Below, in pieces: positions 1-40,867 of a stretch of 40,867 nt of DNA. Each line of letters opens with the position of its first letter. The stretch's first letter is position 1. The position numbers were made by a program, and so were the translations under genes. The stretch lies in the sequence record PQ821741.1. The stretch is one strand, 5' to 3'. The notes under the pieces are model-generated. The model did not search any database. It saw only the letters and a list, made by a program, of their open reading frames with translations, and was not told the origin of the DNA. Source of the DNA: a phage.

Positions 1-31
1 ATGAAGTGGTGTGATGCAATCATACCGCTGA
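1..31. other. 31-nt segment that is the exact reverse complement of 40390-40420
   Basis: Manual reverse-complement comparison; adjacent to the terminal direct repeat. Confidence 0.85.
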
Positions 32-480
32 ATCCCTATAGAGTCAAGTCCTAGGGTATACCCATAAAGAGCCTCTAATGGTCTATCCTAAGGTATATAC
101 CTAAAGATAGGCCATCCTATCAGTGTCACCTAAAGAGGGTCTTAGAGATGGCCTAGGGAGTTCCTAGAGGGTCCTTTAAAATATACCATAAAAATCTGAG
201 TGACTATCTCACAGTGTACGGACCTAAAGTTCCCCCATAGGGGTACCTAAAGCCCAGCCAATCACCTAAAGTCAACCTTCGGTTGACCTTGAGGGTCCCT
301 AAGGGTTAGGGTTGACCCTTTGAGTGGGCCTTGGGTGTTACCTTGAGTGTCTCTCTGTGTCCCTATCTGTTACAGCCTCCTAAAGTATCCTCCTAAAGTA
401 TCCTCCTAAAGTCACCTCCTAAAGTCATTCCTACCGTCTACAACCTAAAGACTACACCTAAAGACCCATCAAGTCAACGC
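32..480. repeat. Left copy of 449-bp direct repeat shared with window end (wrap-around of genome ends)
   Basis: Identical to 40419-40867 except one mismatch (54 g vs 40441 a); offset 40387. Confidence 0.95.
207..364 (+). repeat. T7-type terminal repeat, left copy
   Basis: Begins TCTCACAGTGTACGGACC and ends CTCTCTGTGTCCCT as in T7; repeated at 40594-40751. Confidence 0.8.
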
Positions 481-1368: not shown

Positions 1369-1737
1369 ATGGCTATGTCAAACATGACTTACAACAACGT
1401 TTTCGACCACGCTTACGAAATGCTGAAAGAAAACATCCGTTATGATGACATCCGCGACACTGATGACCTGCACGATGCTGTTCATATGGCTGCCGATAGC
1501 GCCGTTCCGCACTATTACAGTGACGTTTTCAGCGTAATGGCGAGCGAGGGCATTGACCTTGAGTTCGAAGACTCTGGCCTGATGCCGGACACCAAGGACG
1601 TAATCCGTATCCTGCAAGCTCGCATCTATGAGCAACTCACGATTGACCTCTGGGAAGACGCTGAGGACTTGCTGAACGAGTACCTTGAGGAAGTCGAAGA
1701 AGAGGAAGAGGAAGACTACGCAGAGGATGAAGAGTAA
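1369..1737 (+). CDS. 0.3: Ocr, DNA-mimic anti-restriction protein (gene 0.3)
   Basis: 122 aa, acidic C-terminus, N-terminus [27 protein letters not shown] as in T7 Ocr. Confidence 0.93.
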
Positions 1738-1877
1738 TGGTTAAATACGGTCTAACAAGAGAAATGCTCCAAACGTACCGCGTGGCTATGGCTTATGGTG
1801 CTTCTTTCGGGTACTGTATGGCACAATTAGCACAGACATACCGAGCACGTAAGGCGATGTACGGTAATAGTAAGTGA
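1737..1877 (+). CDS. 0.4: Gene 0.4-like small early protein (46 aa)
   Basis: ATG overlaps 0.3 stop (TAATG); [12 protein letters not shown]... resembles T7 gp0.4. Confidence 0.6.
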   Translation: MVKYGLTREMLQTYRVAMAYGASFGYCMAQLAQTYRARKAMYGNSK

Positions 1878-1925
1878 TAGGCTCAAGGTCGCTCCATGCG
1901 AGTGGCCTTTATGATTATCATTTAA
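1878..1925 (+). promoter_or_regulatory. RNase III hairpin (ggtcgct...gagtggccttt atgattat motif)
   Basis: T7-type RNase III site motif; second copy at 2288-2335 inside the duplication. Confidence 0.55.
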
Positions 1926-1991
1926 CATGCAATAGGACTAACACCATGAGTAATCTTCTGGTCACCTCCTAGGTCTAGGTGTATGCGCTCT

Positions 1992-2147
1992 ATGCCGGAC
2001 ACCAAGGACGTAATCCGTATCCTGCAAGCTCGCATCTATGAGCAACTCACGATTGACCTCTGGGAAGACGCTGAGGACTTGCTGAACGAGTACCTTGAGG
2101 AAGTCGAAGAAGAGGAAGAGGAAGACTACGCAGAGGATGAAGAGTAA
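1992..2147 (+). pseudogene. Ocr C-terminal fragment ORF created by the duplication (51 aa from internal Met)
   Basis: Identical to 3' 156 nt of gene 0.3; no convincing RBS. Confidence 0.4.
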
Positions 2148-2287
2148 TGGTTAAATACGGTCTAACAAGAGAAATGCTCCAAACGTACCGCGTGGCTATG
2201 GCTTATGGTGCTTCTTTCGGGTACTGTATGGCACAATTAGCACAGACATACCGAGCACGTAAGGCGATGTACGGTAATAGTAAGTGA
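2147..2287 (+). CDS. 0.4: Second identical copy of gene 0.4-like ORF
   Basis: Exact copy of 1737-1877 within the duplicated unit. Confidence 0.5.
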   Translation: MVKYGLTREMLQTYRVAMAYGASFGYCMAQLAQTYRARKAMYGNSK

Positions 2288-2355
2288 TAGGCTCAAGGTC
2301 GCTCCATGCGAGTGGCCTTTATGATTATCATTTAACATGCAATAGGACTAACACC

Positions 2356-2556
2356 ATGAGTAAACTTCTGGCAACCTCCAAAATCCAAGGCCAATGCACT
2401 GTAACGCTGCGTGAGTACTATCACGGGTCAATGGGATGCACCTATGTTGTGCGCTATGGCAAACAGGTCACACATTGGGTAAACCTGATTTTAGCGCAAG
2501 AGGAGTATCAAGCCTGTGTGATACACCAAGCAACATGTGCAGGTTGGAACGATTGA
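2356..2556 (+). CDS. Hypothetical early protein (66 aa)
   Basis: ATG after RNase III site; ORF MSKLLATSKIQGQC...; no T7 counterpart recognised. Confidence 0.5.
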   Translation: MSKLLATSKIQGQCTVTLREYYHGSMGCTYVVRYGKQVTHWVNLILAQEEYQACVIHQATCAGWND

Positions 2557-7800: not shown

Positions 7801-8863
7801 AACAATGCCATTTAAAGCTGTGTCTTTCGTAGAGTCTGCCATTAAGAAAGCTCTGGACAACGCTGGGTATCTTATAGCCGACATCAAGTACGATGGTGTA
7901 CGCGGGAACATCTGCGTAGACAATACCGCTAACAGTTGCTGGCTCTCTCGTGTATCAAAAACGATTCCGGCGCTTTCTTACCTTAATGGGTTCGATACAC
8001 GTTGGCAGCGTCTACTAAAGGATGACCGTTGCTTCTACCCTGATGGCTTCATGCTGGATTGCGAACTTATGGTCAAGGGAGTGGACTTCAATACTGGCTC
8101 CGGCCTTCTGCGGACCAAGTGGCTCAACAAGAAGAACATGCAATTCGATATTGGCGGCCCATATGAATCGTGGGACGCGAGCATGAAGGGACTTCCTTTC
8201 GGCCTTGACCCGAACTTACTAACAGTCAAGCTGTACGCCATCCTTCCGCTGCACATCGTGGAGTCTGGAGAAGACTGTGACGTTATGACGTTGCTAATGC
8301 AGGAACACGTTAAGAACATGCTGCCTCTGCTACAGGAATACTTCCCTGAAATCGAATGGCAAGCGGCTGAGTCTTACGAGGTCTACGACATGGTTGAACT
8401 ACAGCAACTGTACGAGAAGAAGCGTGAAGAAGGTCATGAGGGTCTCATTGTGAAAGACCCGATGTGTATCTATAAGCGCGGCAAGAAGTCCGGCTGGTGG
8501 AAGATGAAGCCAGAGAATGAGGCCGATGGTGTCGTTGTGGGACTCAACTGGGGAACTCCCGGTCTTGCCAACGAGGGAAAGGTGATTGGCTTCGAGGTTC
8601 TCCTTGAGTCTGGTCGAGTGGTATCCGCCAACAACATCTCTCAGGCACTTATGGAGGAGTTCACTAAGACTGTAGCTGAGGCAAGCGGTTACACACTAAC
8701 AGGTGGACCCGTAGTAATTCAAGATGGTCAACCAAAGGTCAACCCTTACGAGGGCTGGGCGTGCCAGATTAGCTACATGGAGGAAACCCCAGACGGCTCT
8801 CTGCGTCACCCATCGTTCGTAATGTTCCGTGGCACCGAGGACAACCCTCAAGAGAAAATGTAA
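7790..8863 (+). CDS. 1.3: ATP-dependent DNA ligase
   Basis: 357 aa; KYDGVRG adenylation motif; C-terminus ...DGSLRHPSFVMFRGTEDNPQEKM as T7 ligase. Confidence 0.95.
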   Translation: MQIKTMPFKAVSFVESAIKKALDNAGYLIADIKYDGVRGNICVDNTANSCWLSRVSKTIPALSYLNGFDTRWQRLLKDDRCFYPDGFMLDCELMVKGVDFNTGSGLLRTKWLNKKNMQFDIGGPYESWDASMKGLPFGLDPNLLTVKLYAILPLHIVESGEDCDVMTLLMQEHVKNMLPLLQEYFPEIEWQAAESYEVYDMVELQQLYEKKREEGHEGLIVKDPMCIYKRGKKSGWWKMKPENEADGVVVGLNWGTPGLANEGKVIGFEVLLESGRVVSANNISQALMEEFTKTVAEASGYTLTGGPVVIQDGQPKVNPYEGWACQISYMEETPDGSLRHPSFVMFRGTEDNPQEKM

Positions 8864-8865
8864 AC

Positions 8866-8900
8866 ACACTGGCTCACCTTAGGGTGGGCCTTTCTGCGTT
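8866..8900 (+). terminator. Early terminator TE (rho-independent)
   Basis: ggctcacc-ttag-ggtgggcc hairpin followed by tttctgcgttt. Confidence 0.85.
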
Positions 8901-8923
8901 TAATACGACTCACTAAAGGAGGT
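8901..8923 (+). promoter_or_regulatory. T7 promoter phi1.5
   Basis: taatacgactcactaaaggaggt. Confidence 0.85.
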
Positions 8924-8930
8924 ACACACC

Positions 8931-9077
8931 ATGATGTACTTAATACCATTATTCATCCCTTACGAGGGCTGGGCGTGCCAGATTAGCTACATGGAGGAAA
9001 CCCCAGACGGCTCTCTGCGTCACCCATCGTTCGTAATGTTCCGTGGCACCGAGGACAACCCTCAAGAGAAAATGTAA
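8931..9077 (+). pseudogene. Chimeric ORF from the duplication: 9 N-terminal codons of the small gene fused in frame to the last 39 codons of ligase
   Basis: MMYLIPLFI + PYEGWACQISYMEETPDGSLRHPSFVMFRGTEDNPQEKM; has the native RBS ggagg. Confidence 0.6.
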
Positions 9078-9079
9078 AC

Positions 9080-9114
9080 ACACTGGCTCACCTTAGGGTG
9101 GGCCTTTCTGCGTT
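9080..9114 (+). terminator. Second copy of TE terminator (in duplication)
   Basis: Identical to 8866-8900. Confidence 0.8.
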
Positions 9115-9137
9115 TAATACGACTCACTAAAGGAGGT
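9115..9137 (+). promoter_or_regulatory. Second copy of phi1.5 promoter (in duplication)
   Basis: Identical to 8901-8923. Confidence 0.8.
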
Positions 9138-9144
9138 ACACACC

Positions 9145-9234
9145 ATGATGTACTTAATACCATTATTCATCGTCATCCTAGGATGCCTTGCGCTCACCTG
9201 TAGCGACGACGATATGCCAGATGGTCACGCTTAA
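9145..9234 (+). CDS. Small protein, gene 1.4/1.5-like (29 aa)
   Basis: MMYLIPLFIVILGCLALTCSDDDMPDGHA; RBS aggagg. Confidence 0.7.
   Translation: MMYLIPLFIVILGCLALTCSDDDMPDGHA

Positions 9235-10043: not shown

Positions 10044-10056
<13 letters not shown>
9520..10056 (+). CDS. 1.7: Gene 1.7 nucleotide kinase
   Basis: 178 aa; TGATG overlap with 1.6; matches T7 gp1.7. Confidence 0.85.
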
Positions 10057-10561
<505 letters not shown>

Positions 10562-15120: not shown

Positions 15121-17352
15121 ATGATCGTTTCTGACATCGAAGCTAACGCCCTCTTAGAGAGCGTCACTAAGTTCCACTGCGGGGTTATCTACGACTACTC
15201 TACCGCTGAGTACGTAAGCTACCGTCCGAGTGACTTCGGTGCGTATCTGGATGCGCTGGAAGCCGAGGTTGCACGAGGCGGTCTTATTGTGTTCCACAAC
15301 GGTCACAAGTATGACGTTCCTGCATTGACAAAACTGGCAAAGCTGCAATTGAACCGAGAGTTCCACATTCCTCGTGAGAACTGTATCGACACCCTTGTGC
15401 TGTCACGCTTGATTCACTCTAACCTCAAGGACACCGACATGGGTCTTCTGCGTTCCGGTAAACTTCCGGGTAAACGCTTTGGGTCTCACGCTTTGGAGGC
15501 GTGGGGTTATCGCTTAGGCGAGATGAAGGGTGAATACAAGGACGACTTTAAGCGTATGCTTGAAGAGCAGGGTGAAGAATACGTTGACGGAATGGAGTGG
15601 TGGAACTTCAACGAAGAGATGATGGCCTATAACGTTCAGGACGTTGTGGTCACTAAGGCTCTCCTTGAGAAATTACTGTCAGACAAGCACTATTTCCCTT
15701 TAGGTTTAGAGCACGTTAATTATGATTCTATAATCTTTTGGAAAGACTCTATCGAAGCTATTGATGTTGAACATAGAGCAGCTTGGTTGTTAGCTAAACA
15801 GGAGCGTAATGGTTTCCCATTTGACGCTAAGGCAATCGAGGAGTTGTACGTAGAGTTAGCTGCTCGCCGCTCTGAGTTGCTCCGCAAATTGACCGAAACG
15901 TTCGGCTCATGGTATCAGCCCAAAGGTGGCACCGAAATGTTCTGCCATCCGAGGACTGGTAAGCCACTGCCCAAATACCCTCGCATTAAGACACCTAAAG
16001 TTGGTGGTATCTTTAAGAAGCCTAAGAACAAGGCACAGCGAGAAGGCCGTGAGCCTTGCGAACTGGATACCCGCGAGTACGTTGCTGGTGCCCCTTACAC
16101 CCCAGTTGAGCATGTAGTGTTTAACCCATCGTCTCGTGACCACATCCAGAAGAAACTCCAAGAGGCTGGATGGGTCCCAACCAAGTACACCGATAAGGGT
16201 GCGCCTGTGGTGGACGATGAGGTACTCGAAGGAGTACGTGTAGATGACCCTGAGAAGCAAGCTGCAATCGACCTCATTAAAGAATACTTGATGATTCAGA
16301 AGCGAATCGGACAGTCTGCTGAGGGAGACAAGGCGTGGCTTCGTTACGTTGCCGATGATGGTAAGATTCACGGCTCTGTAAACCCTAACGGGGCAGTTAC
16401 TGGTCGCGCTACCCATGCTTTCCCCAACCTTGCGCAAATTCCGGGTGTGCGTTCACCTTATGGAGAGCAGTGTCGCGCTGCTTTTGGTGCTGAACATCAC
16501 CTAGACGGTATTACTGGTAAGCCTTGGGTTCAGGCGGGTATCGACGCATCCGGTCTGGAACTACGCTGCTTGGCCCACTTCATGGCTCGCTTTGATAACG
16601 GCGAGTACGCTCACGAGATTCTTAATGGAGACATCCACACTAAGAACCAGATGGCTGCCGACGCATCCGGTCTGGAACTACGCTGCTTGGCCCACTTCAT
16701 GGCTCGCTTTGATAACGGCGAGTACGCTCACGAGATTCTTAATGGAGACATCCACACTAAGAACCAGATGGCTGCCGAATTGCCTACCCGTGATAACGCC
16801 AAGACGTTCATCTATGGGTTCCTCTACGGTGCTGGCGATGAGAAGATTGGGCAGATTGTCGGTGCTGGTAAAGAGCGTGGTAAGGAACTCAAGAAGAAAT
16901 TCCTTGAGAACACCCCTGCGATTGCGGCACTCCGAGAGTCTATCCAACAGACACTTGTTGAGTCCTCTCAGTGGGTAGCTGGCGAACAGCGAGTCAAGTG
17001 GAAACGCCGCTGGATTAAAGGTCTGGATGGTCGCAAGGTACACGTTCGTAGTCCTCACGCTGCCCTGAATACCCTACTGCAATCCGCTGGTGCGCTCATC
17101 TGCAAACTGTGGATTATCAAGACCGAAGAGATGCTCGTAGAGAAAGGCTTGAAGCATGGCTGGGATGGGGACTTTGCGTACATGGCGTGGGTCCACGATG
17201 AAATCCAAGTGGGTTGTCGTACCGAAGAGATTGCTCAGGTGGTCATTGAGACAGCACAAGAAGCGATGCGCTGGGTTGGAGACCACTGGAACTTCCGGTG
17301 TCTTCTGGATACAGAAGGTAAGATGGGTCCTAATTGGGCCGTATGTCACTAA
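15121..17352 (+). CDS. 5: DNA polymerase (family A), carrying an internal 39-aa in-frame tandem duplication
   Basis: 743 aa against 704 in T7; otherwise near-identical to T7 gp5. Confidence 0.95.
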   Translation: MIVSDIEANALLESVTKFHCGVIYDYSTAEYVSYRPSDFGAYLDALEAEVARGGLIVFHNGHKYDVPALTKLAKLQLNREFHIPRENCIDTLVLSRLIHSNLKDTDMGLLRSGKLPGKRFGSHALEAWGYRLGEMKGEYKDDFKRMLEEQGEEYVDGMEWWNFNEEMMAYNVQDVVVTKALLEKLLSDKHYFPLGLEHVNYDSIIFWKDSIEAIDVEHRAAWLLAKQERNGFPFDAKAIEELYVELAARRSELLRKLTETFGSWYQPKGGTEMFCHPRTGKPLPKYPRIKTPKVGGIFKKPKNKAQREGREPCELDTREYVAGAPYTPVEHVVFNPSSRDHIQKKLQEAGWVPTKYTDKGAPVVDDEVLEGVRVDDPEKQAAIDLIKEYLMIQKRIGQSAEGDKAWLRYVADDGKIHGSVNPNGAVTGRATHAFPNLAQIPGVRSPYGEQCRAAFGAEHHLDGITGKPWVQAGIDASGLELRCLAHFMARFDNGEYAHEILNGDIHTKNQMAADASGLELRCLAHFMARFDNGEYAHEILNGDIHTKNQMAAELPTRDNAKTFIYGFLYGAGDEKIGQIVGAGKERGKELKKKFLENTPAIAALRESIQQTLVESSQWVAGEQRVKWKRRWIKGLDGRKVHVRSPHAALNTLLQSAGALICKLWIIKTEEMLVEKGLKHGWDGDFAYMAWVHDEIQVGCRTEEIAQVVIETAQEAMRWVGDHWNFRCLLDTEGKMGPNWAVCH
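16542..16775 (+). repeat. Exact in-frame tandem duplication, 117-bp unit (16542-16658 and 16659-16775)
   Basis: 120 nt identity at offset 117 with cga microhomology; encodes DASGLELRCLAHFMARFDNGEYAHEILNGDIHTKNQMAA twice. Confidence 0.95.
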
Positions 17353-17814
17353 TTCTAAAGGAGAAATTATTATGGCTATGACCAAGAAATTTAAAGTGTC
17401 CTTCGATGTTACCGCTAAGATGCCATCTGACGTTCAGGCAATCTTAGAGAAAGACATGCTACACCTGTGTAAGCAGGTTGGCTCCGGTGCTATCGTGCCA
17501 GATGGTAAACAGAAGGAAATGATTGTACAGTTCCTGACATATGGTTGGAGACCACTGGAACTTCCGGTGTCTTCTGGATACAGAAGGTAAGATGGGTCCT
17601 AATTGGGCCGTATGTCACTAATTCTAAAGGAGAAATTATTATGGCTATGACCAAGAAATTTAAAGTGTCCTTCGATGTTACCGCTAAGATGCCATCTGAC
17701 GTTCAGGCAATCTTAGAGAAAGACATGCTACACCTGTGTAAGCAGGTTGGCTCCGGTGCTATCGTGCCAGATGGTAAACAGAAGGAAATGATTGTACAGT
17801 TCCTGACATATGGT
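17277..17814 (+). repeat. Exact tandem duplication, 269-bp unit (17277-17545 and 17546-17814)
   Basis: 272 nt identity at offset 269 with ggt microhomology; spans gene 5 3' end, intergenic RBS and 5' 56 codons of gene 5.5. Confidence 0.95.
17372..17590 (+). pseudogene. Truncated gene 5.5 copy fused out of frame to a duplicated gene 5 tail (72 aa)
   Basis: First 56 codons identical to gene 5.5, then frame-shifted tail WRPLELPVSSGYRR*. Confidence 0.7.
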
Positions 17815-17940
17815 ATGGAAGGTGTGATGACGTTCGTAGTGCGTACAGCGTTTCGTGAGGCCATCAAGGACATGCACGAAGAGTATGCCGATAAGGACTC
17901 CTTCAAACTATCTCCTGCAACAGTACGGGAGGTGTTCTAA
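17641..17940 (+). CDS. 5.5: Gp5.5 (H-NS-binding protein)
   Basis: 99 aa MAMTKKFKVSFDVTAKM...SPATVREVF. Confidence 0.9.
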   Translation: MAMTKKFKVSFDVTAKMPSDVQAILEKDMLHLCKQVGSGAIVPDGKQKEMIVQFLTYGMEGVMTFVVRTAFREAIKDMHEEYADKDSFKLSPATVREVF

Positions 17941-19196: not shown

Positions 19197-19297
19197 CGTA
19201 TATTGGCATTGGTCTTTGTGTCCTCGGAATGTGCCTCATTTCGTGGGGCCTTTGGGACTTAGCCAGAATAATCAAGGCGTTACAAGACTCTAAGTGA
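19184..19297 (+). CDS. 6.3: Gp6.3 small membrane protein
   Basis: 37 aa ...IGIGLCVLGMCLISWGLWDLARIIKALQDSK; GTG start inferred; overlaps gene 6 by 13 nt as in T7. Confidence 0.55.
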   Translation: METIAYIGIGLCVLGMCLISWGLWDLARIIKALQDSK

Positions 19298-19360
19298 TAA
19301 ACTCAAGGTCCCTAAATTAATACGACTCACTATAGGGAGATAGGGCCTTTATGATTATTA
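19296..19360 (+). promoter_or_regulatory. RNase III site R6.5 flanking the phi6.5 promoter
   Basis: actcaaggtccc ... gggcctttatgattat arms either side of the promoter. Confidence 0.55.
19318..19340 (+). promoter_or_regulatory. T7 promoter phi6.5
   Basis: taatacgactcactatagggaga exact consensus. Confidence 0.9.
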
Positions 19361-19393
19361 CTTTAAGATTTAACTCTAAGAGGAATATTTATC

Positions 19394-19648
19394 ATGTTAA
19401 CACCTATTCAACAATTACTTAAGAACCCTAACGATATTCCAGATGTGCCTCGTGCAACCGCTGAGTATCTACAGGTTCGATTCAACCATGCGTATCTCGA
19501 AGCATCTGGTCATATAGGATTTATGCGTGCTAGTGGTTGTAGTGAAGCTCACATCTTGGGTTTCATTCAGGGCCTACAGTATGCCTCTAACATCATTGAT
19601 GAGATTGAGTTACGTAAGGAACAACTAAGAGACGATGGGGAGGATTGA
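19394..19648 (+). CDS. 6.5: Gp6.5
   Basis: 84 aa [30 protein letters not shown]... Confidence 0.85.
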
Positions 19649-19652
19649 CACT

Positions 19653-19919
19653 ATGTGTTTCTCACCGAAAATTAAAACTCCAAAGATGGATACCAATCAG
19701 ATTCGAGCCATTGAGCCAGCGCCTCTGACCCAAGAAGTGTCAAGCGTAGAGTTCGGTGGGTCTTCTGATGAGACGGATACCGAAGGCACCGAAATGTCTG
19801 GACGCAAAGGACTCAAGGTCGAACGTGATGATTCAGTAGCGAAGTATAAAGCCAGCGATAATGGCTCCGCTCGTATGAAATCTTCAATCCGTAAGTCCGC
19901 ATTCGGAGGTAAGAAGTGA
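19653..19919 (+). CDS. 6.7: Gp6.7 (virion protein)
   Basis: MCFSPKIKTPKMDTNQIRAIEPAPLTQEV... Confidence 0.8.
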   Translation: MCFSPKIKTPKMDTNQIRAIEPAPLTQEVSSVEFGGSSDETDTEGTEMSGRKGLKVERDDSVAKYKASDNGSARMKSSIRKSAFGGKK

Positions 19920-35052: not shown

Positions 35053-35736
35053 ATGGCTAACGTAATTAAAACAGTTTTGACTTACCCGTTAGATGGCTCC
35101 ACTCGTGATTTTAATATCCCGTTTGAGTATCTAGCCCGTAAGTTCGTAGTGGTAACTCTTATTGGTGTAGACCGCAAGGTCCTTACGATTAATACAGACT
35201 ACCGTTTTGCTACTCGCACTACCATCTCATTAACCAAGGCTTGGGGTCCAGCGGATGGATATACTACCATCGAGTTGCGCCGAGTAACCTCAACTACCGA
35301 CCGATTGGTTGACTTTACAGATGGTTCAATCCTCCGTGCATATGACCTTAACGTGGCTCAGATTCAGACTATGCATGTGGCAGAAGAGGCACGTGACTTA
35401 ACTGCGGATACAATCGGTGTCAATAGTGACGGTCACTTGGATGCCCGTGGTCGTCGAATTGTGAACCTAGCGAACGCTGTAGATGATTATGATGCCATCA
35501 ACCTACGTCAGGTTAAGCTGTGGAACAATAGTGCGTATCAATCAGCCGTGAACGCGAAGACCTCTGAGACGAACGCTAAGACCTCTGAGACAAACGCCTT
35601 AACATACCGCAATTCTGCTGCTGCTAGTGCCACCGCTGCAAGCACTTCTGAGACGAACGCGAAGACCTCTGAGACGAACGCGAAGACCTCTGAGACGAAC
35701 GCGAAGACCTCTGAGATTACTGCGAAGTTCCTATAA
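35053..35736 (+). pseudogene. 17: Tail fibre gene 17, N-terminal part, ending at premature TAA
   Basis: MANVIKTVLTY...FNIPFEYLARKFVVVTLIGVDRKVLT... matches T7/T3 gp17 N-terminus; frame ends ...TSEITAKFL* at 35734-36. Confidence 0.85.
35556..35723 (+). repeat. 21-bp tandem repeats encoding the heptad TSETNAK (2 units, 42-bp spacer, 4 units)
   Basis: gaagacctctgagacgaacgc repeated; two adjacent units are nucleotide-identical. Confidence 0.85.
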
Positions 35737-35868
35737 GGATGCTGCTGCTTCAAGTGCCACTGCTTCTGCTGCTAGTGCAGCTACCTGTAAGGCAGTTGCT
35801 ATAAGGATGCTGCTGCTTCAAGTGCCACTGCTTCTGCTGCTAGTGCAGCTACCTCTAAGGCAGAGGCC
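35733..35868 (+). repeat. Imperfect 68-bp tandem repeat inside gene 17 (35733-35800 and 35801-35868)
   Basis: First ~55 nt identical, 3' ends differ; copy 1 is +1 relative to the gene frame and carries TAA/TAG/TAA stops. Confidence 0.85.
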
Positions 35869-36489
35869 GACCGCGCGGAGCTACGTGCAAACCAAGCAGG
35901 TGGAGCTAGGGTTATAAACGGAATCTATCCAGATTCTAGTGGAAGCGTAACACTCACTACTGATGACATCAAAGACCCATCTGGTGTTACCATAATGATG
36001 GCTGTTCGATCTATGATTGACGCTATCTTTCCTGTCGGTATTCGCATGGATTGGCCTCTCGCTTCCCTTCCCGATAATCCAACACTTGGTGTTAAGTTTC
36101 TTAGGTTGGATGGGTCTAGCTTTGATAAAACACAGTACCCCAAGCTGGCTGCCATATATCCGTCTGGAGTTTTGCCAGATTTACGTGGTGAGTTTATTCG
36201 TGGCTGGGATGACGGGCGCGGGGTTGATGGTGGGCGCGTTGTTTTAACTGGTCAGAGCCAATCAGTACAGCAGCATACTCATGGTCTAGCGATGGCATAC
36301 AGTTCAGAGAGCGGTTACAAGGACAAGCTAGGCGCTGGCCCTAACTCTGACATGATTCCGATTAAAGATATGATTAAAGTAACCACTTTTACTGGTTCTG
36401 GTGAGTATTACTTAAAGGCGAATGATTCAACAGGTGTTGAAACTCGCCCGCGCAACGTCGCATTTAACTTCATCGTGAGGGCCGCATAA
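35803..36489 (+). pseudogene. 17: Tail fibre gene 17, C-terminal part with tip 1 (in frame with N-terminal part but separated by stops)
   Basis: KDAAASSATASAASAATSKAEADRAE...GEFIRGWDDGRGVDGGR...TRPRNVAFNFIVRAA*; no own start or RBS. Confidence 0.8.
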
Positions 36490-36841
36490 TGACACAGGCA
36501 AAATTAAACAGTGAATTTATTGCCACAGTAGCGGGTGATATGAAGATTCTAGTGGAAGCGTAACACTCACTACTGATGACATCAAAGACCCATCTGGTGT
36601 TACCATAATGATGGCTGTTCGATCTATGATTGACGCTATCTTTCCTGTCGGTATTCGCATGGATTGGCCTCTCGCTTCCCTTCCCGATAATCCAACACTT
36701 GGTGTTAAGTTTCTTAGGTTGGATGGGTCTAGCTTTGATAAAACACAGTACCCCAAGCTGGCTGCCATATATCCGTCTGGAGTTTTGCCAGATTTACGTG
36801 GTGAGTTTATTCGTGGCTGGGATGACGGGCGCGGGGTTGAT
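35931..36841 (+). repeat. 298-bp exact direct repeat (35931-36228 and 36544-36841), period 613 bp
   Basis: Base-by-base identical; both copies encode ...DSSGSVTLTTDDIKDPSGVTIMMAVRSMIDAIFPVGIRMDW...GEFIRGWDDGRGVD. Confidence 0.95.
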
Positions 36842-37123
36842 AGAGGGCGCGGATTAATGAGTGCTCAGGGCGATGCCATTCGGAATATTACTGGTCGCAT
36901 TAGGGGCGGGTCATCTGGGTCTTATGGTAAAATCTTCCTGGATGAATCTAGTGGTGCTTTTTTCCCTTCCGGTGAGGATGGAGAACAGTTCCATCCTTCA
37001 TCGACACCTCTACCTTATGGGAGATACAACACTGTAGATTTTGATGCTAGCAGGGTAGTCCCAACTGCCGACGAAAACCGCCCAAGAAACGTTGCGTGGA
37101 ATATGATTGTGAGGGCATCGTAA
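36539..37123 (+). other. Promoterless, startless second tail-fibre C-terminal cassette (tip 2)
   Basis: Reading frame opens after TGA at 36536-38; shared 298-bp stem then divergent tip ...NRPRNVAWNMIVRAS*; no RBS; first ATG is the internal Met-Met at 36608. Confidence 0.75.
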
Positions 37124-38174: not shown

Positions 38175-39946
38175 TGAGGAAAGGTGTATCCGCTCAGTCC
38201 AATCGTAATGCGCTCGTTGTGGCGCAACTAAAGGGTGACTTCGTGGCGTTCCTGTTCGTCTTATGGAAGGCGTTAAACCTGCCAGTACCAACTAAGTGCC
38301 AAATTGACATGGCTAAGGTGCTGGCGAATGGGGACAACAAGAAGTTCATCCTACAGGCTTTCCGTGGTATCGGTAAGTCGTTCATCACGTGTGCGTTCGT
38401 TGTGTGGTCACTATGGAGGGACCCTCAGTTGAAGATACTTATCGTATCAGCTTCTAAAGAACGTGCAGACGCTAACTCCATATTCATCAAGAACATCATT
38501 GACCTGCTACCGTTTCTCAGTGAGTTGAAGCCGAGACCCGGACAGCGTGACTCTGTGATTAGCTTTGATGTTGGTCCTGCGAGTCCTGACCACTCTCCTA
38601 GTGTGAAATCAGTAGGTATCACTGGTCAGTTAACTGGTAGTCGTGCTGATATTATCATTGCAGATGACGTTGAGATTCCATCTAACAGCGCAACTATGGG
38701 TGCCCGTGAGAAGCTATGGACTCTTGTTCAGGAGTTCGCTGCGTTGCTTAAACCGCTGCCTTCCTCACGAGTTATCTACCTTGGCACACCTCAGACCGAG
38801 ATGACTCTCTATAAGGAACTTGAGGATAACCGTGGGTACACAACCATTATCTGGCCCGCTCTGTATCCAAGGACACGTGAAGAGAACCTCTATTACTCAC
38901 AGCGTCTTGCTCCTATGTTACGCGCTGAGTACGATGAGAACCCTGAGGCCCTCGCTGGGACTCCTACGGACCCTGTGCGCTTTGACCGTGATGACCTCCG
39001 TGAGCGTGAGTTGGAATACGGTAAGGCTGGCTTCACACTACAGTTCATGCTTAACCCGAACCTGAGTGATGCCGAGAAGTACCCTCTGAGGCTCCGTGAC
39101 GCTATCGTAGCGGCCTTAGACTTAGAGAAGGCACCAATGCATTACCAGTGGCTTCCGAACCGTCAGAACCTCATTGAGGACCTTCCTAACGTGGGCCTTA
39201 AGGGTGATGACCTGCACACCTACCACGATTGCTCCAATAACTCTGGTCAGTATCAACAGAAGATTCTGATTATTGACCCAAGTGGTCGTGGTAAGGACGA
39301 AACAGGTTACGCTGTGCTGTACACCCTCAACGGTTACATCTACCTTATGGAAGCTGGAGGTTTCCGTGATGGTTACTCTGATAAGACCCTTGAGTTGCTC
39401 GCTAAGAAAGCTAAGCAATGGGGAGTCCAGACGGTCGTCTATGAGAGTAACTTCGGTGACGGTATGTTTGGTAAGGTATTCAGTCCTATCCTTCTTAAAC
39501 ACCACAACTGTGCTATGGAAGAGATTCGTGCTCGTGGTATGAAGGAGATGCGCATTTGTGATACCCTTGAGCCAGTCATGCAGACTCACCGACTTGTCAT
39601 TCGTGATGAGGTCATTAGGGCCGACTATCAGTCCGCTCGTGATGTAGACGGTAAGCATGACGTTAAGTATTCACTGTTCTACCAGATGACTCGTATCACT
39701 CGTGAGAAAGGCGCTCTGGCCCATGATGACCGATTGGATGCCCTTGCGCTAGGCGTTGAGTATCTCCGTGAGTCCATGCAGTTGGATTCCGTTAAGGTCG
39801 AAGGTGAAGTGCTTGCTGACTTCCTTGAGGAACATATGATGCGTCCTACGGTTGCTGCTACGCATATCATTGAGATGTCTGTGGGAGGAGTTGATGTGTA
39901 CTCTGAGGACGATGAGGGCTACGGTACGTCTTTCATTGAGTGGTGA
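38174..39946 (+). CDS. 19: Terminase large subunit (DNA maturase B)
   Basis: 590 aa; T7 gp19 homolog. Confidence 0.96.
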
Positions 39947-40026
39947 TTTATGCATTAGGACTGCATAGGGATGCACTATAGACCACGGATGGTCAGTTCT
40001 TTAAGTTACTGAAAAGACACGATAAA

Positions 40027-40049
40027 TTAATACGACTCACTATAGGGAG
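40027..40049 (+). promoter_or_regulatory. T7 promoter phiOR
   Basis: taatacgactcactatagggaga. Confidence 0.9.
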
Positions 40050-40204
40050 AGGAGGGACGAAAGGTTACTATATAGATACTGAATGAATACTTATAGAGTG
40101 CATAAAGTATGCATAGTAGTGTACCTAAAGTGACCTCTAAGAATGGTGATTATATTGTATTAATATCACCTTAACTTAAAGTCCAACATAAAGGGAGGAG
40201 ACTC

Positions 40205-40354
40205 ATGTTCCGCTTATTGTTGAACCTACTGCGGCATAGAGTCACCTACCGATTTCTTGTGGTACTTTGTGCTGCCCTTGGGTACGCATCTCTTACTGGA
40301 GACCTCAGTTCACTGGAGTCTGCCGTTTGCTCTATACTCACTTGTAGCGATTAG
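40205..40354 (+). CDS. 19.5: Gp19.5
   Basis: 49 aa MFRLLLNLLRHRVTYRFLVVLCAALGYASLTGDLSSLESAVCSILTCSD; RBS aagggaggag. Confidence 0.85.
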   Translation: MFRLLLNLLRHRVTYRFLVVLCAALGYASLTGDLSSLESAVCSILTCSD

Positions 40355-40418
40355 GGTCTTCCTGACCGACTGATGGCTCACCGAGGGATTCAGCGGTATG
40401 ATTGCATCACACCACTTC

Positions 40419-40867
40419 ATCCCTATAGAGTCAAGTCCTAAGGTATACCCATAAAGAGCCTCTAATGGTCTATCCTAAGGTATATACCTAAAGATAGGCC
40501 ATCCTATCAGTGTCACCTAAAGAGGGTCTTAGAGATGGCCTAGGGAGTTCCTAGAGGGTCCTTTAAAATATACCATAAAAATCTGAGTGACTATCTCACA
40601 GTGTACGGACCTAAAGTTCCCCCATAGGGGTACCTAAAGCCCAGCCAATCACCTAAAGTCAACCTTCGGTTGACCTTGAGGGTCCCTAAGGGTTAGGGTT
40701 GACCCTTTGAGTGGGCCTTGGGTGTTACCTTGAGTGTCTCTCTGTGTCCCTATCTGTTACAGCCTCCTAAAGTATCCTCCTAAAGTATCCTCCTAAAGTC
40801 ACCTCCTAAAGTCATTCCTACCGTCTACAACCTAAAGACTACACCTAAAGACCCATCAAGTCAACGC
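40419..40867. repeat. Right copy of 449-bp direct repeat (wrap-around into the genome left end)
   Basis: Identical to 32-480 except one mismatch. Confidence 0.95.
40594..40751 (+). repeat. T7-type terminal repeat, right copy
   Basis: Identical to 207-364. Confidence 0.8.

Follow-up and report, generated by a model that had tools for sequence, protein, structure and literature searches.

Locus and contig ends

The window, as the whole stretch of DNA analyzed here is called, comprises 40,867 nucleotides of sequence record PQ821741.1 and, judged from its sequence, comes from a new member of Teseptimavirus (T7-like). Its best relatives in GenBank, which include EFA-2, N30, CICC 80001, and T7, were 91-93% identical over approximately 90% of a 23-kb query. 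Near the right end of the window, a promoter that corresponds in position to T7 phiOR is followed by a homolog of gene 19.5, a 41-bp quasi-palindrome, a second imperfect palindrome, and the right copy of the terminal repeat (Table 1). The exact protein of the gene 19.5 homolog is present in four GenBank records of T7-like phages, with the Pfam domain DUF5465, and T7 gene 19.5 is annotated at 39389-39538. Looked up as exact proteins, the terminase and the RNA polymerase were not found, and the capsid protein and gp19.5 led to relatives only.

Table 1. Features of the window (positions counted from its first base; +, given strand;., no strand assigned).
Feature	Position	Strand	Remarks
Inverted leader	1-37	+	Positions 5-41 of the 41-bp quasi-palindrome as read on the bottom strand; the native right flank follows without a gap
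Wrap-around overlap, copy 1	32-480	+	175 bp of pre-repeat sequence, terminal repeat, and 116 bp of the genome left end
Private G	54	+	A in the second copy (40441) and in 19 of 19 relatives; 17 nt from the flip junction
Terminal repeat, left copy (158 bp)	207-364	+	Identical to 40594-40751; predicted mature left end at 207
ATCTGTT	365-371, again 40752-40758	+	Directly after the repeat; read from the sequence
Tandem duplication	1582-2379		Period 410 nt
Tandem duplication	8739-9171		Period 214 nt
Tandem duplication	10044-10372		Period 163 nt
Tandem duplication, DNA polymerase ORF	16542-16778		Period 117 nt
Tandem duplication	17274-17819		Period 269 nt
Tandem duplication	35726-35863		Period 68 nt
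Partial tandem duplication, 1.5 copies	35931-36851		Period 613 nt
T7-type promoter, phiOR position	40023-40050	+	Repeat family D1, 100% to the reference copy; reads towards the palindrome and the repeat
Gene 19.5 homolog (49 aa)	40205-40354	+	From the translation; ends 30 bp before the palindrome
Native 41-bp quasi-palindrome, candidate M-hairpin	40384-40424	.	AGGGATTCAGCGGTATGAT-TGC-ATCACACCACTTCATCCCT
Wrap-around overlap, copy 2	40419-40867	+	Native context
Second imperfect palindrome, ATGGTCTATCCTAAGGTATATACCTAAAGATAGGCCAT	40465-40502, also 78-115	.	Between the first palindrome and the repeat
Terminal repeat, right copy	40594-40751	+	Predicted mature right end at 40751

The terminal repeat has the form of a T7-type direct terminal repeat: it stands at both ends, is homologous to that of T7, and its boundaries coincide with the ends of deposited records, the end of the T7 record (39937) aligning to window position 40751 and position 1 of the N30 record to 207. 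The predicted mature genome spans 207-40751, with the window starting 206 bp before the predicted left end and stopping 116 bp past the predicted right end. The heptamer that follows the repeat is one which we take to be the core of the class II pause and termination signal for T7 RNA polymerase at the concatemer junction.

Comparison of the two window ends by script showed that 32-480 equals 40419-40867 save for the G at 54 (A at 40441), which gives an overlap of 449 bp and a period of 40,387 bp between the copies. The assembly path passed through one collapsed copy of the terminal repeat, as at a concatemer junction, and the 449 bp thus came to stand at both ends. Nothing is out of the ordinary in an assembly that wraps around in this way. 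The length of the overlap matches no k-mer size, and no repeat was found at position 480 that would account for the stop of the contig at 40867. For annotation, the first 206 and the last 116 bases are wrap-around and are to be trimmed. The earlier note, made from the sequence, had placed the terminal repeat at these same two intervals and had described the window as longer than one genome, wrapping around its ends and joining pre-right-end sequence via the repeat to the left end; this description is borne out by the exact 158-bp identity and the homology to T7, by the 449-bp overlap with its one mismatch, and by the agreement with the T7 and N30 record ends.

Conserved quasi-palindrome beside gene 19.5

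The quasi-palindrome has 19-nt arms and a 3-nt loop; the six outermost pairs match throughout, and there are four mismatched positions. Its center lies 190 bp ahead of the terminal repeat, and its start 30 bp past the stop codon of gene 19.5. The 41-mer is identical in T7 (39568-39608) and, save for one loop base, was the same in 19 of the 19 Teseptimavirus loci examined, with a left flank that varies. A 41-mer of like shape is present in T3 and phiYeO3-12, and a 45-mer in K11-type phages. Four compensatory double changes (positions 9/33, 10/32, 17/25, and 18/24) separate the T7 and T3 forms; they were counted by script on these equal-length forms, MAFFT alignment of the 41-mers with the 45-mers being gapped asymmetrically. 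At one palindrome position, the T7 and T3 forms both have G.T on the bottom strand, where the top strand has A.C.

Folding energies were computed with DNA parameters for each strand separately. The bottom-strand hairpin was more stable than the top-strand hairpin in every genus tested (bottom and top strand, respectively, in kcal/mol: T7, -10.6 and -6.7; T3, -8.9 and -6.8; K11, -10.5 and -7.9; K1F, -12.7 and -11.2; Berlin, -6.8 and -6.4; gh-1, -12.3 and -9.3), and the folding z-scores ranged from -3.9 to -5.7 against shuffles. A foldable inverted repeat is conserved among the relatives, and the palindrome is a real, conserved, hairpin-prone element. Since the bias is towards the bottom strand and phiOR transcripts carry the top-strand sequence, a bottom-strand DNA hairpin is suggested rather than an RNA structure. 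The latter was considered separately and found unlikely, because the transcripts would have A.C/C.A mismatches where the bottom strand pairs G.T.

Hairpins of unrelated sequence were found at the same place in K1F, Berlin, and gh-1, before a motif resembling NTANAGTCAA. This motif stands directly after the hairpin in the window (40425-40434) and is conserved in T7-, T3-, and K11-type phages; the versions in K1F, Berlin, and gh-1 are approximate, despite the unrelated hairpin sequences, and NTANAGTCAA may be a protein recognition or nicking site. The second imperfect palindrome is also conserved in T7 (39649-39686) and is unflipped in both window copies. In addition, two 7-kb contigs of IMG/VR (L053 and L073) have a 43-nt AGGGAT...ATCCCT element followed by TTACAGTCAA, the rest of the sequence being different; the element could be a distant relative or a chance match.

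According to PMC2680503, which cites Kim & Chung 1996 and Kim et al. 1997, the M-hairpin of T7 adjoins gene 19.5, and its deletion leads to small plaques, late lysis, and concatemer-processing defects in a phage that is still viable. A hairpin structure containing the terminal repeat occurs during T7 infection (PMC4281155). The order of gene 19.5, palindrome, and repeat in the window agrees with this location, and the 41-bp element is a candidate M-hairpin by position and sequence. A hairpin in T7 DNA was reportedly put about 190 bp left of the junction by Chung, Nardone, and Hinkle in 1990; this distance agrees with the 190 bp measured here and is a lead only.

Inverted leader at the start of the window

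The reverse complement of 40384-40420 is reproduced without a mismatch by bases 1-37 (37 of the 37 positions), and the window has no other long perfect inverted repeat. The same 37-mer is also found on the minus strand in T7. When 1-37 was compared with 40388-40424 in the direct register, 11 of the 37 positions were mismatched, so the leader is a true flip and not the native orientation. A chance match was rejected, as the exact identity extends over 37 nt in 41 kb, against the 11 mismatches of the native register. Six nucleotides (32-37, ATCCCT) are common to the direct overlap and the inverted stretch; they belong to both since the outer arms of the palindrome, AGGGAT and ATCCCT, are perfectly complementary. 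The first 37 bases are not to be taken as a genome feature.

The inversion had been described in the earlier note as running from 1 to 31 (reverse complement of 40390-40420), which is exact as far as it goes, the full extent being 37 nt. A snap-back, a chimeric read, or an artefact had been ranked there ahead of a T7 processing hairpin, and the present analysis agrees with that order. What had been missed is that the flipped segment is a conserved imperfect palindrome with the junction within its 6-bp perfect outer arms, that this palindrome sits where the T7 M-hairpin has been reported, beside gene 19.5, and that the same architecture is found in the GenBank record of phage KMI2.

The longest word common to 40371-40440 and its own reverse complement is 6 nt. 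With so little in common between the strands, a k-mer graph needs real reads that carry the junction. Invention of the junction by a k-mer assembler was rejected on this ground, a shared word of 6 nt being too short. At k = 31, novel k-mers were unbroken from position 8 to 54, and the junction and the private G at 54 therefore lie on the same reads. The start of the window has the form of a fold-back chimera, in which a sequence is joined to the reverse complement of its neighbor at an imperfect palindrome.

For comparison of the possible structures, the native top strand was written as X-P-Y, where P is the palindrome, X and Y are its left and right flanks, and Pflip is the reverse complement (RC) of P. 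In these terms, the window begins with the final 37 nt of Pflip and passes straight into Y. After folding back and extending itself, a bottom strand reads RC(Y)-Pflip-Y, and an in-place inversion reads X-Pflip-Y. As the contig starts 4 nt inside Pflip and the left flank is unseen, the window alone is compatible with both a snap-back and an in-place inversion, and the AT with which it opens suits one model as well as the other. Quasi-palindromes are known sites of mutation by template switching; if such switching took place twice at this element while the genome replicated, X-Pflip-Y would be present in a fraction of the phage population, and the assembler would have broken the circle at this polymorphism. 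Such a flip is, however, a simple bubble in an assembly and gives no reason for a contig end 4 nt inside the palindrome, whereas a snap-back leads into its own reverse complement.

Tandem duplications in the contig

The window contains seven near-perfect tandem duplications, which add approximately 1.85 kb in total and are highly atypical of T7-like phages. Wherever the duplication positions can be aligned, T7 has one copy, and a 3-nt microhomology was found at two of the duplication junctions. The 117-nt duplication repeats 39 aa, including DASGLELR, within the DNA polymerase ORF (15121-17352, 743 aa); when one unit was removed, a polymerase of 704 aa was obtained, the length of T7 gp5. DASGLELR is motif A of the DNA polymerase, which holds a catalytic aspartate. 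Since an active-site motif is duplicated in an essential enzyme, the contig is unlikely to represent a viable consensus.

Rare junction reads appear to have been threaded into the contig path, the alternative source of the duplications being a rearranged or amplified template. If the contig threads rare junction reads, the prior that the inverted leader is of the same kind is raised. For quality control, a contig with seven tandem duplications is to be flagged as unreliable.

In the tail-fiber region (35053-37123), ORFs of 227, 164, and 171 aa were found together with 21-nt repeats, the 68-nt duplication, and the 613-nt partial duplication. Collapsing the duplications of this region did not restore a single long gene 17 ORF. 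Either the region is misassembled or the fiber is organized unlike that of T7.

Flipped junctions in other records

No exact match to the T7-type flipped junction was found in IMG/VR, JGI metagenome contigs, or GTDB genomes, and a degenerate T7/T3/K11-type pattern of the junction had no match in IMG/VR or metagenomes. Two matches to the K11 pattern in IMG/VR (L085 and L086) were dismissed as unrelated sequence without the palindrome. In GenBank, the flipped junction was absent from approximately 170 T7-type and 98 T3-type records and present in two of approximately 370 K11-type records, KMI2 and RCIP0157. That the flip is a fixed variant of this phage lineage was considered as well and is unsupported, the junction having had no hit in IMG/VR, JGI metagenomes, or GTDB genomes and being carried by no T7- or T3-type record of GenBank.

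KMI2 (MN101216, a Klebsiella phage of Przondovirus) has RC(Y, 39 nt)-Pflip-Y at 19512-19634. Its inverted leader is exact over 84 nt, made up of the 39 nt of RC(Y) and the flipped 45-mer, and the 39 nt of RC(Y) prove a true snap-back there. A native segment with X, P, Y, and part of the repeat precedes the junction, and a stretch of 284 nt that starts with P is then repeated; its two copies agree at all 239 nt outside the palindrome. The record starts with the capsid gene. Most probably, the original KMI2 contig began at 19512 and ended at 19511, and what was deposited would seem to be a raw contig, inverted leader included, after rotation to start at the capsid gene. Within the "complete genome" MN101216.1, the snap-back junction and the 284-bp duplication around the concatemer-junction region occupy 19228-19834, and the record probably needs correction.

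RCIP0157 (PV854173.1, a Klebsiella phage) has the 45-mer flipped in place at approximately 2045-2089, with both flanks collinear. Its 45-bp quasi-palindrome is inverted relative to all other K11-type phages, and the phage may show, as a natural experiment, whether it makes a difference which way the hairpin faces. Folding back or flipping at the palindrome is rare but recurrent in assemblies. RCIP0157 thus carries exactly the kind of flip, of a homologous 45-mer, that the in-place model proposes for the window; the nearest architectural parallel of the window is nevertheless KMI2, a proven snap-back, and an in-place flip was considered improbable as the source of the leader.

The rotation seen in KMI2 bears on yet another origin, in which the junction would have been made by software or by hand (by end-joining, rotation, or trimming of a palindromic long read) and no junction molecule would have existed. 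In its favor, rotation and re-joining of the KMI2 record, whether manual or by a pipeline, are evident, and the window contig has other structural oddities. To produce what is observed, however, the join would have had to fall, in two unrelated projects, exactly on the 6-bp outer arm of the sole conserved hairpin and in the orientation that folding back predicts, and splitting a genuine fold-back long read would still imply that such a molecule existed. This origin was therefore regarded as very improbable.

Possible origins of the inverted leader

The inverted leader probably marks a strand that folded back at the presumed processing hairpin known from T7, and is a trace rather than a heritable part of the genome. 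In the reading preferred here, to which a probability of roughly one half is given, the leader stems from minority molecules that had folded back at the palindrome, most likely made or enriched in vitro, and that were used as the contig end. The bottom strand, which runs 5' to 3' leftwards, would fold back at the 41-bp quasi-palindrome just past gene 19.5, and its folded-back end would prime its own copying, giving the reverse complement of the right flank, the flipped palindrome, the right flank, and the terminal repeat. Folding back during fragmentation, end repair, or amplification would make or enrich such molecules as a minority, and the assembler would take them as a contig end that starts 4 nt inside the flipped palindrome. 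The status as a minority form or artefact is based on the rarity of the junction, the linked G at 54, and the tandem duplications. We infer that RC(flank) lies on the left side of the window junction and that the folding back took place in the tube.

The same sequence could have been formed in the infected cell, and the leader would then record an in vivo intermediate of concatemer processing at the M-hairpin, or a replicated inverted-dimer form. Leftward synthesis of the bottom strand would cross the repeat, the nascent 3' end would fold back at the palindrome and copy itself, and the resulting arm would end in a hairpin and carry the repeat a second time; the virion DNA would have been sequenced together with DNA of infected cells or with DNA left unpackaged in the lysate. 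The palindrome lies 30 bp past gene 19.5, where PMC2680503 puts the M-hairpin, and a hairpin with the terminal repeat is known from T7 infection (PMC4281155). Conservation of the structure is accompanied by compensatory changes, and the more stable hairpin is that of the bottom strand, the one whose fold-back gives the observed junction. The polarity also fits, as the arm runs into the repeat, and an independent assembly from another genus, KMI2, has the same junction. Against this, folding back in vitro at the same palindrome yields an identical sequence, the junction occurs in one of approximately 640 related GenBank records and in none of the IMG/VR or JGI contigs, and the linked private base at 54 and the other anomalies of the contig suggest poor-quality or minority reads. 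An in vivo origin of the window leader is possible but doubtful.

A broader proposition is that the leader and the KMI2 junction capture, at base resolution, an in vivo hairpin intermediate in which the nascent bottom strand reverses at the quasi-palindrome beside gene 19.5 and so duplicates the terminal repeat, by a mechanism that would be shared across genera of Studiervirinae and would occasionally leave a heritable in-place flip, as in RCIP0157. In this breadth the proposition is rather unlikely. Should read-level data place the formation of the junctions in infected cells, they would locate to the base where an intermediate so far characterized mainly on gels turns around, and would bear on the old question of how the terminal repeat of T7 is duplicated.

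Biologically, the trace draws attention to a short hairpin, highly conserved and biased towards one strand, that T7-like phages retain beside gene 19.5. Useful by-products of the analysis are the support that comparison of the genera lends to a bottom-strand hairpin, the parallels in two GenBank records, and the caution called for by the tandem duplications.

Comparison with known systems

In circularly closed or concatemer-style assemblies of phages with short direct repeats, pre-right-end sequence is likewise joined via a single repeat copy to the left end, and the contig ends overlap there too. The window is unusual among these only in the length of its overlap (449 bp).

Chimeric reads that arise in library preparation at mismatched palindromes and inverted repeats have been documented in enzymatic and sonication libraries (PMC10908179). 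The window resembles these library chimeras (PDSM model, PMC10908179) and the inverted chimeras of multiple displacement amplification in having its junction at a mismatched palindrome, with an inverted adjacent copy at a read or contig end and a linked base error. It differs from them in that those were described as low-frequency reads from human capture libraries, whereas the junction of the window reached a contig and its palindrome is a functional viral element.

KMI2 resembles the window in that its leader is inverted at the homologous palindrome and is succeeded by a direct overlap, which starts with the palindrome and runs into the terminal repeat. Unlike the window, it has an 84-nt leader with RC(flank), a junction that lies in the interior of the record after rotation, and no tandem duplications.

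The T7 M-hairpin is a physical intermediate seen on gels from infected cells, whereas the window has a 37-nt trace at a contig end alone. The two agree in genome position, in the identical 41-bp sequence, and in a hairpin arm that includes the repeat, and the window junction is what folding back at the T7 element predicts.
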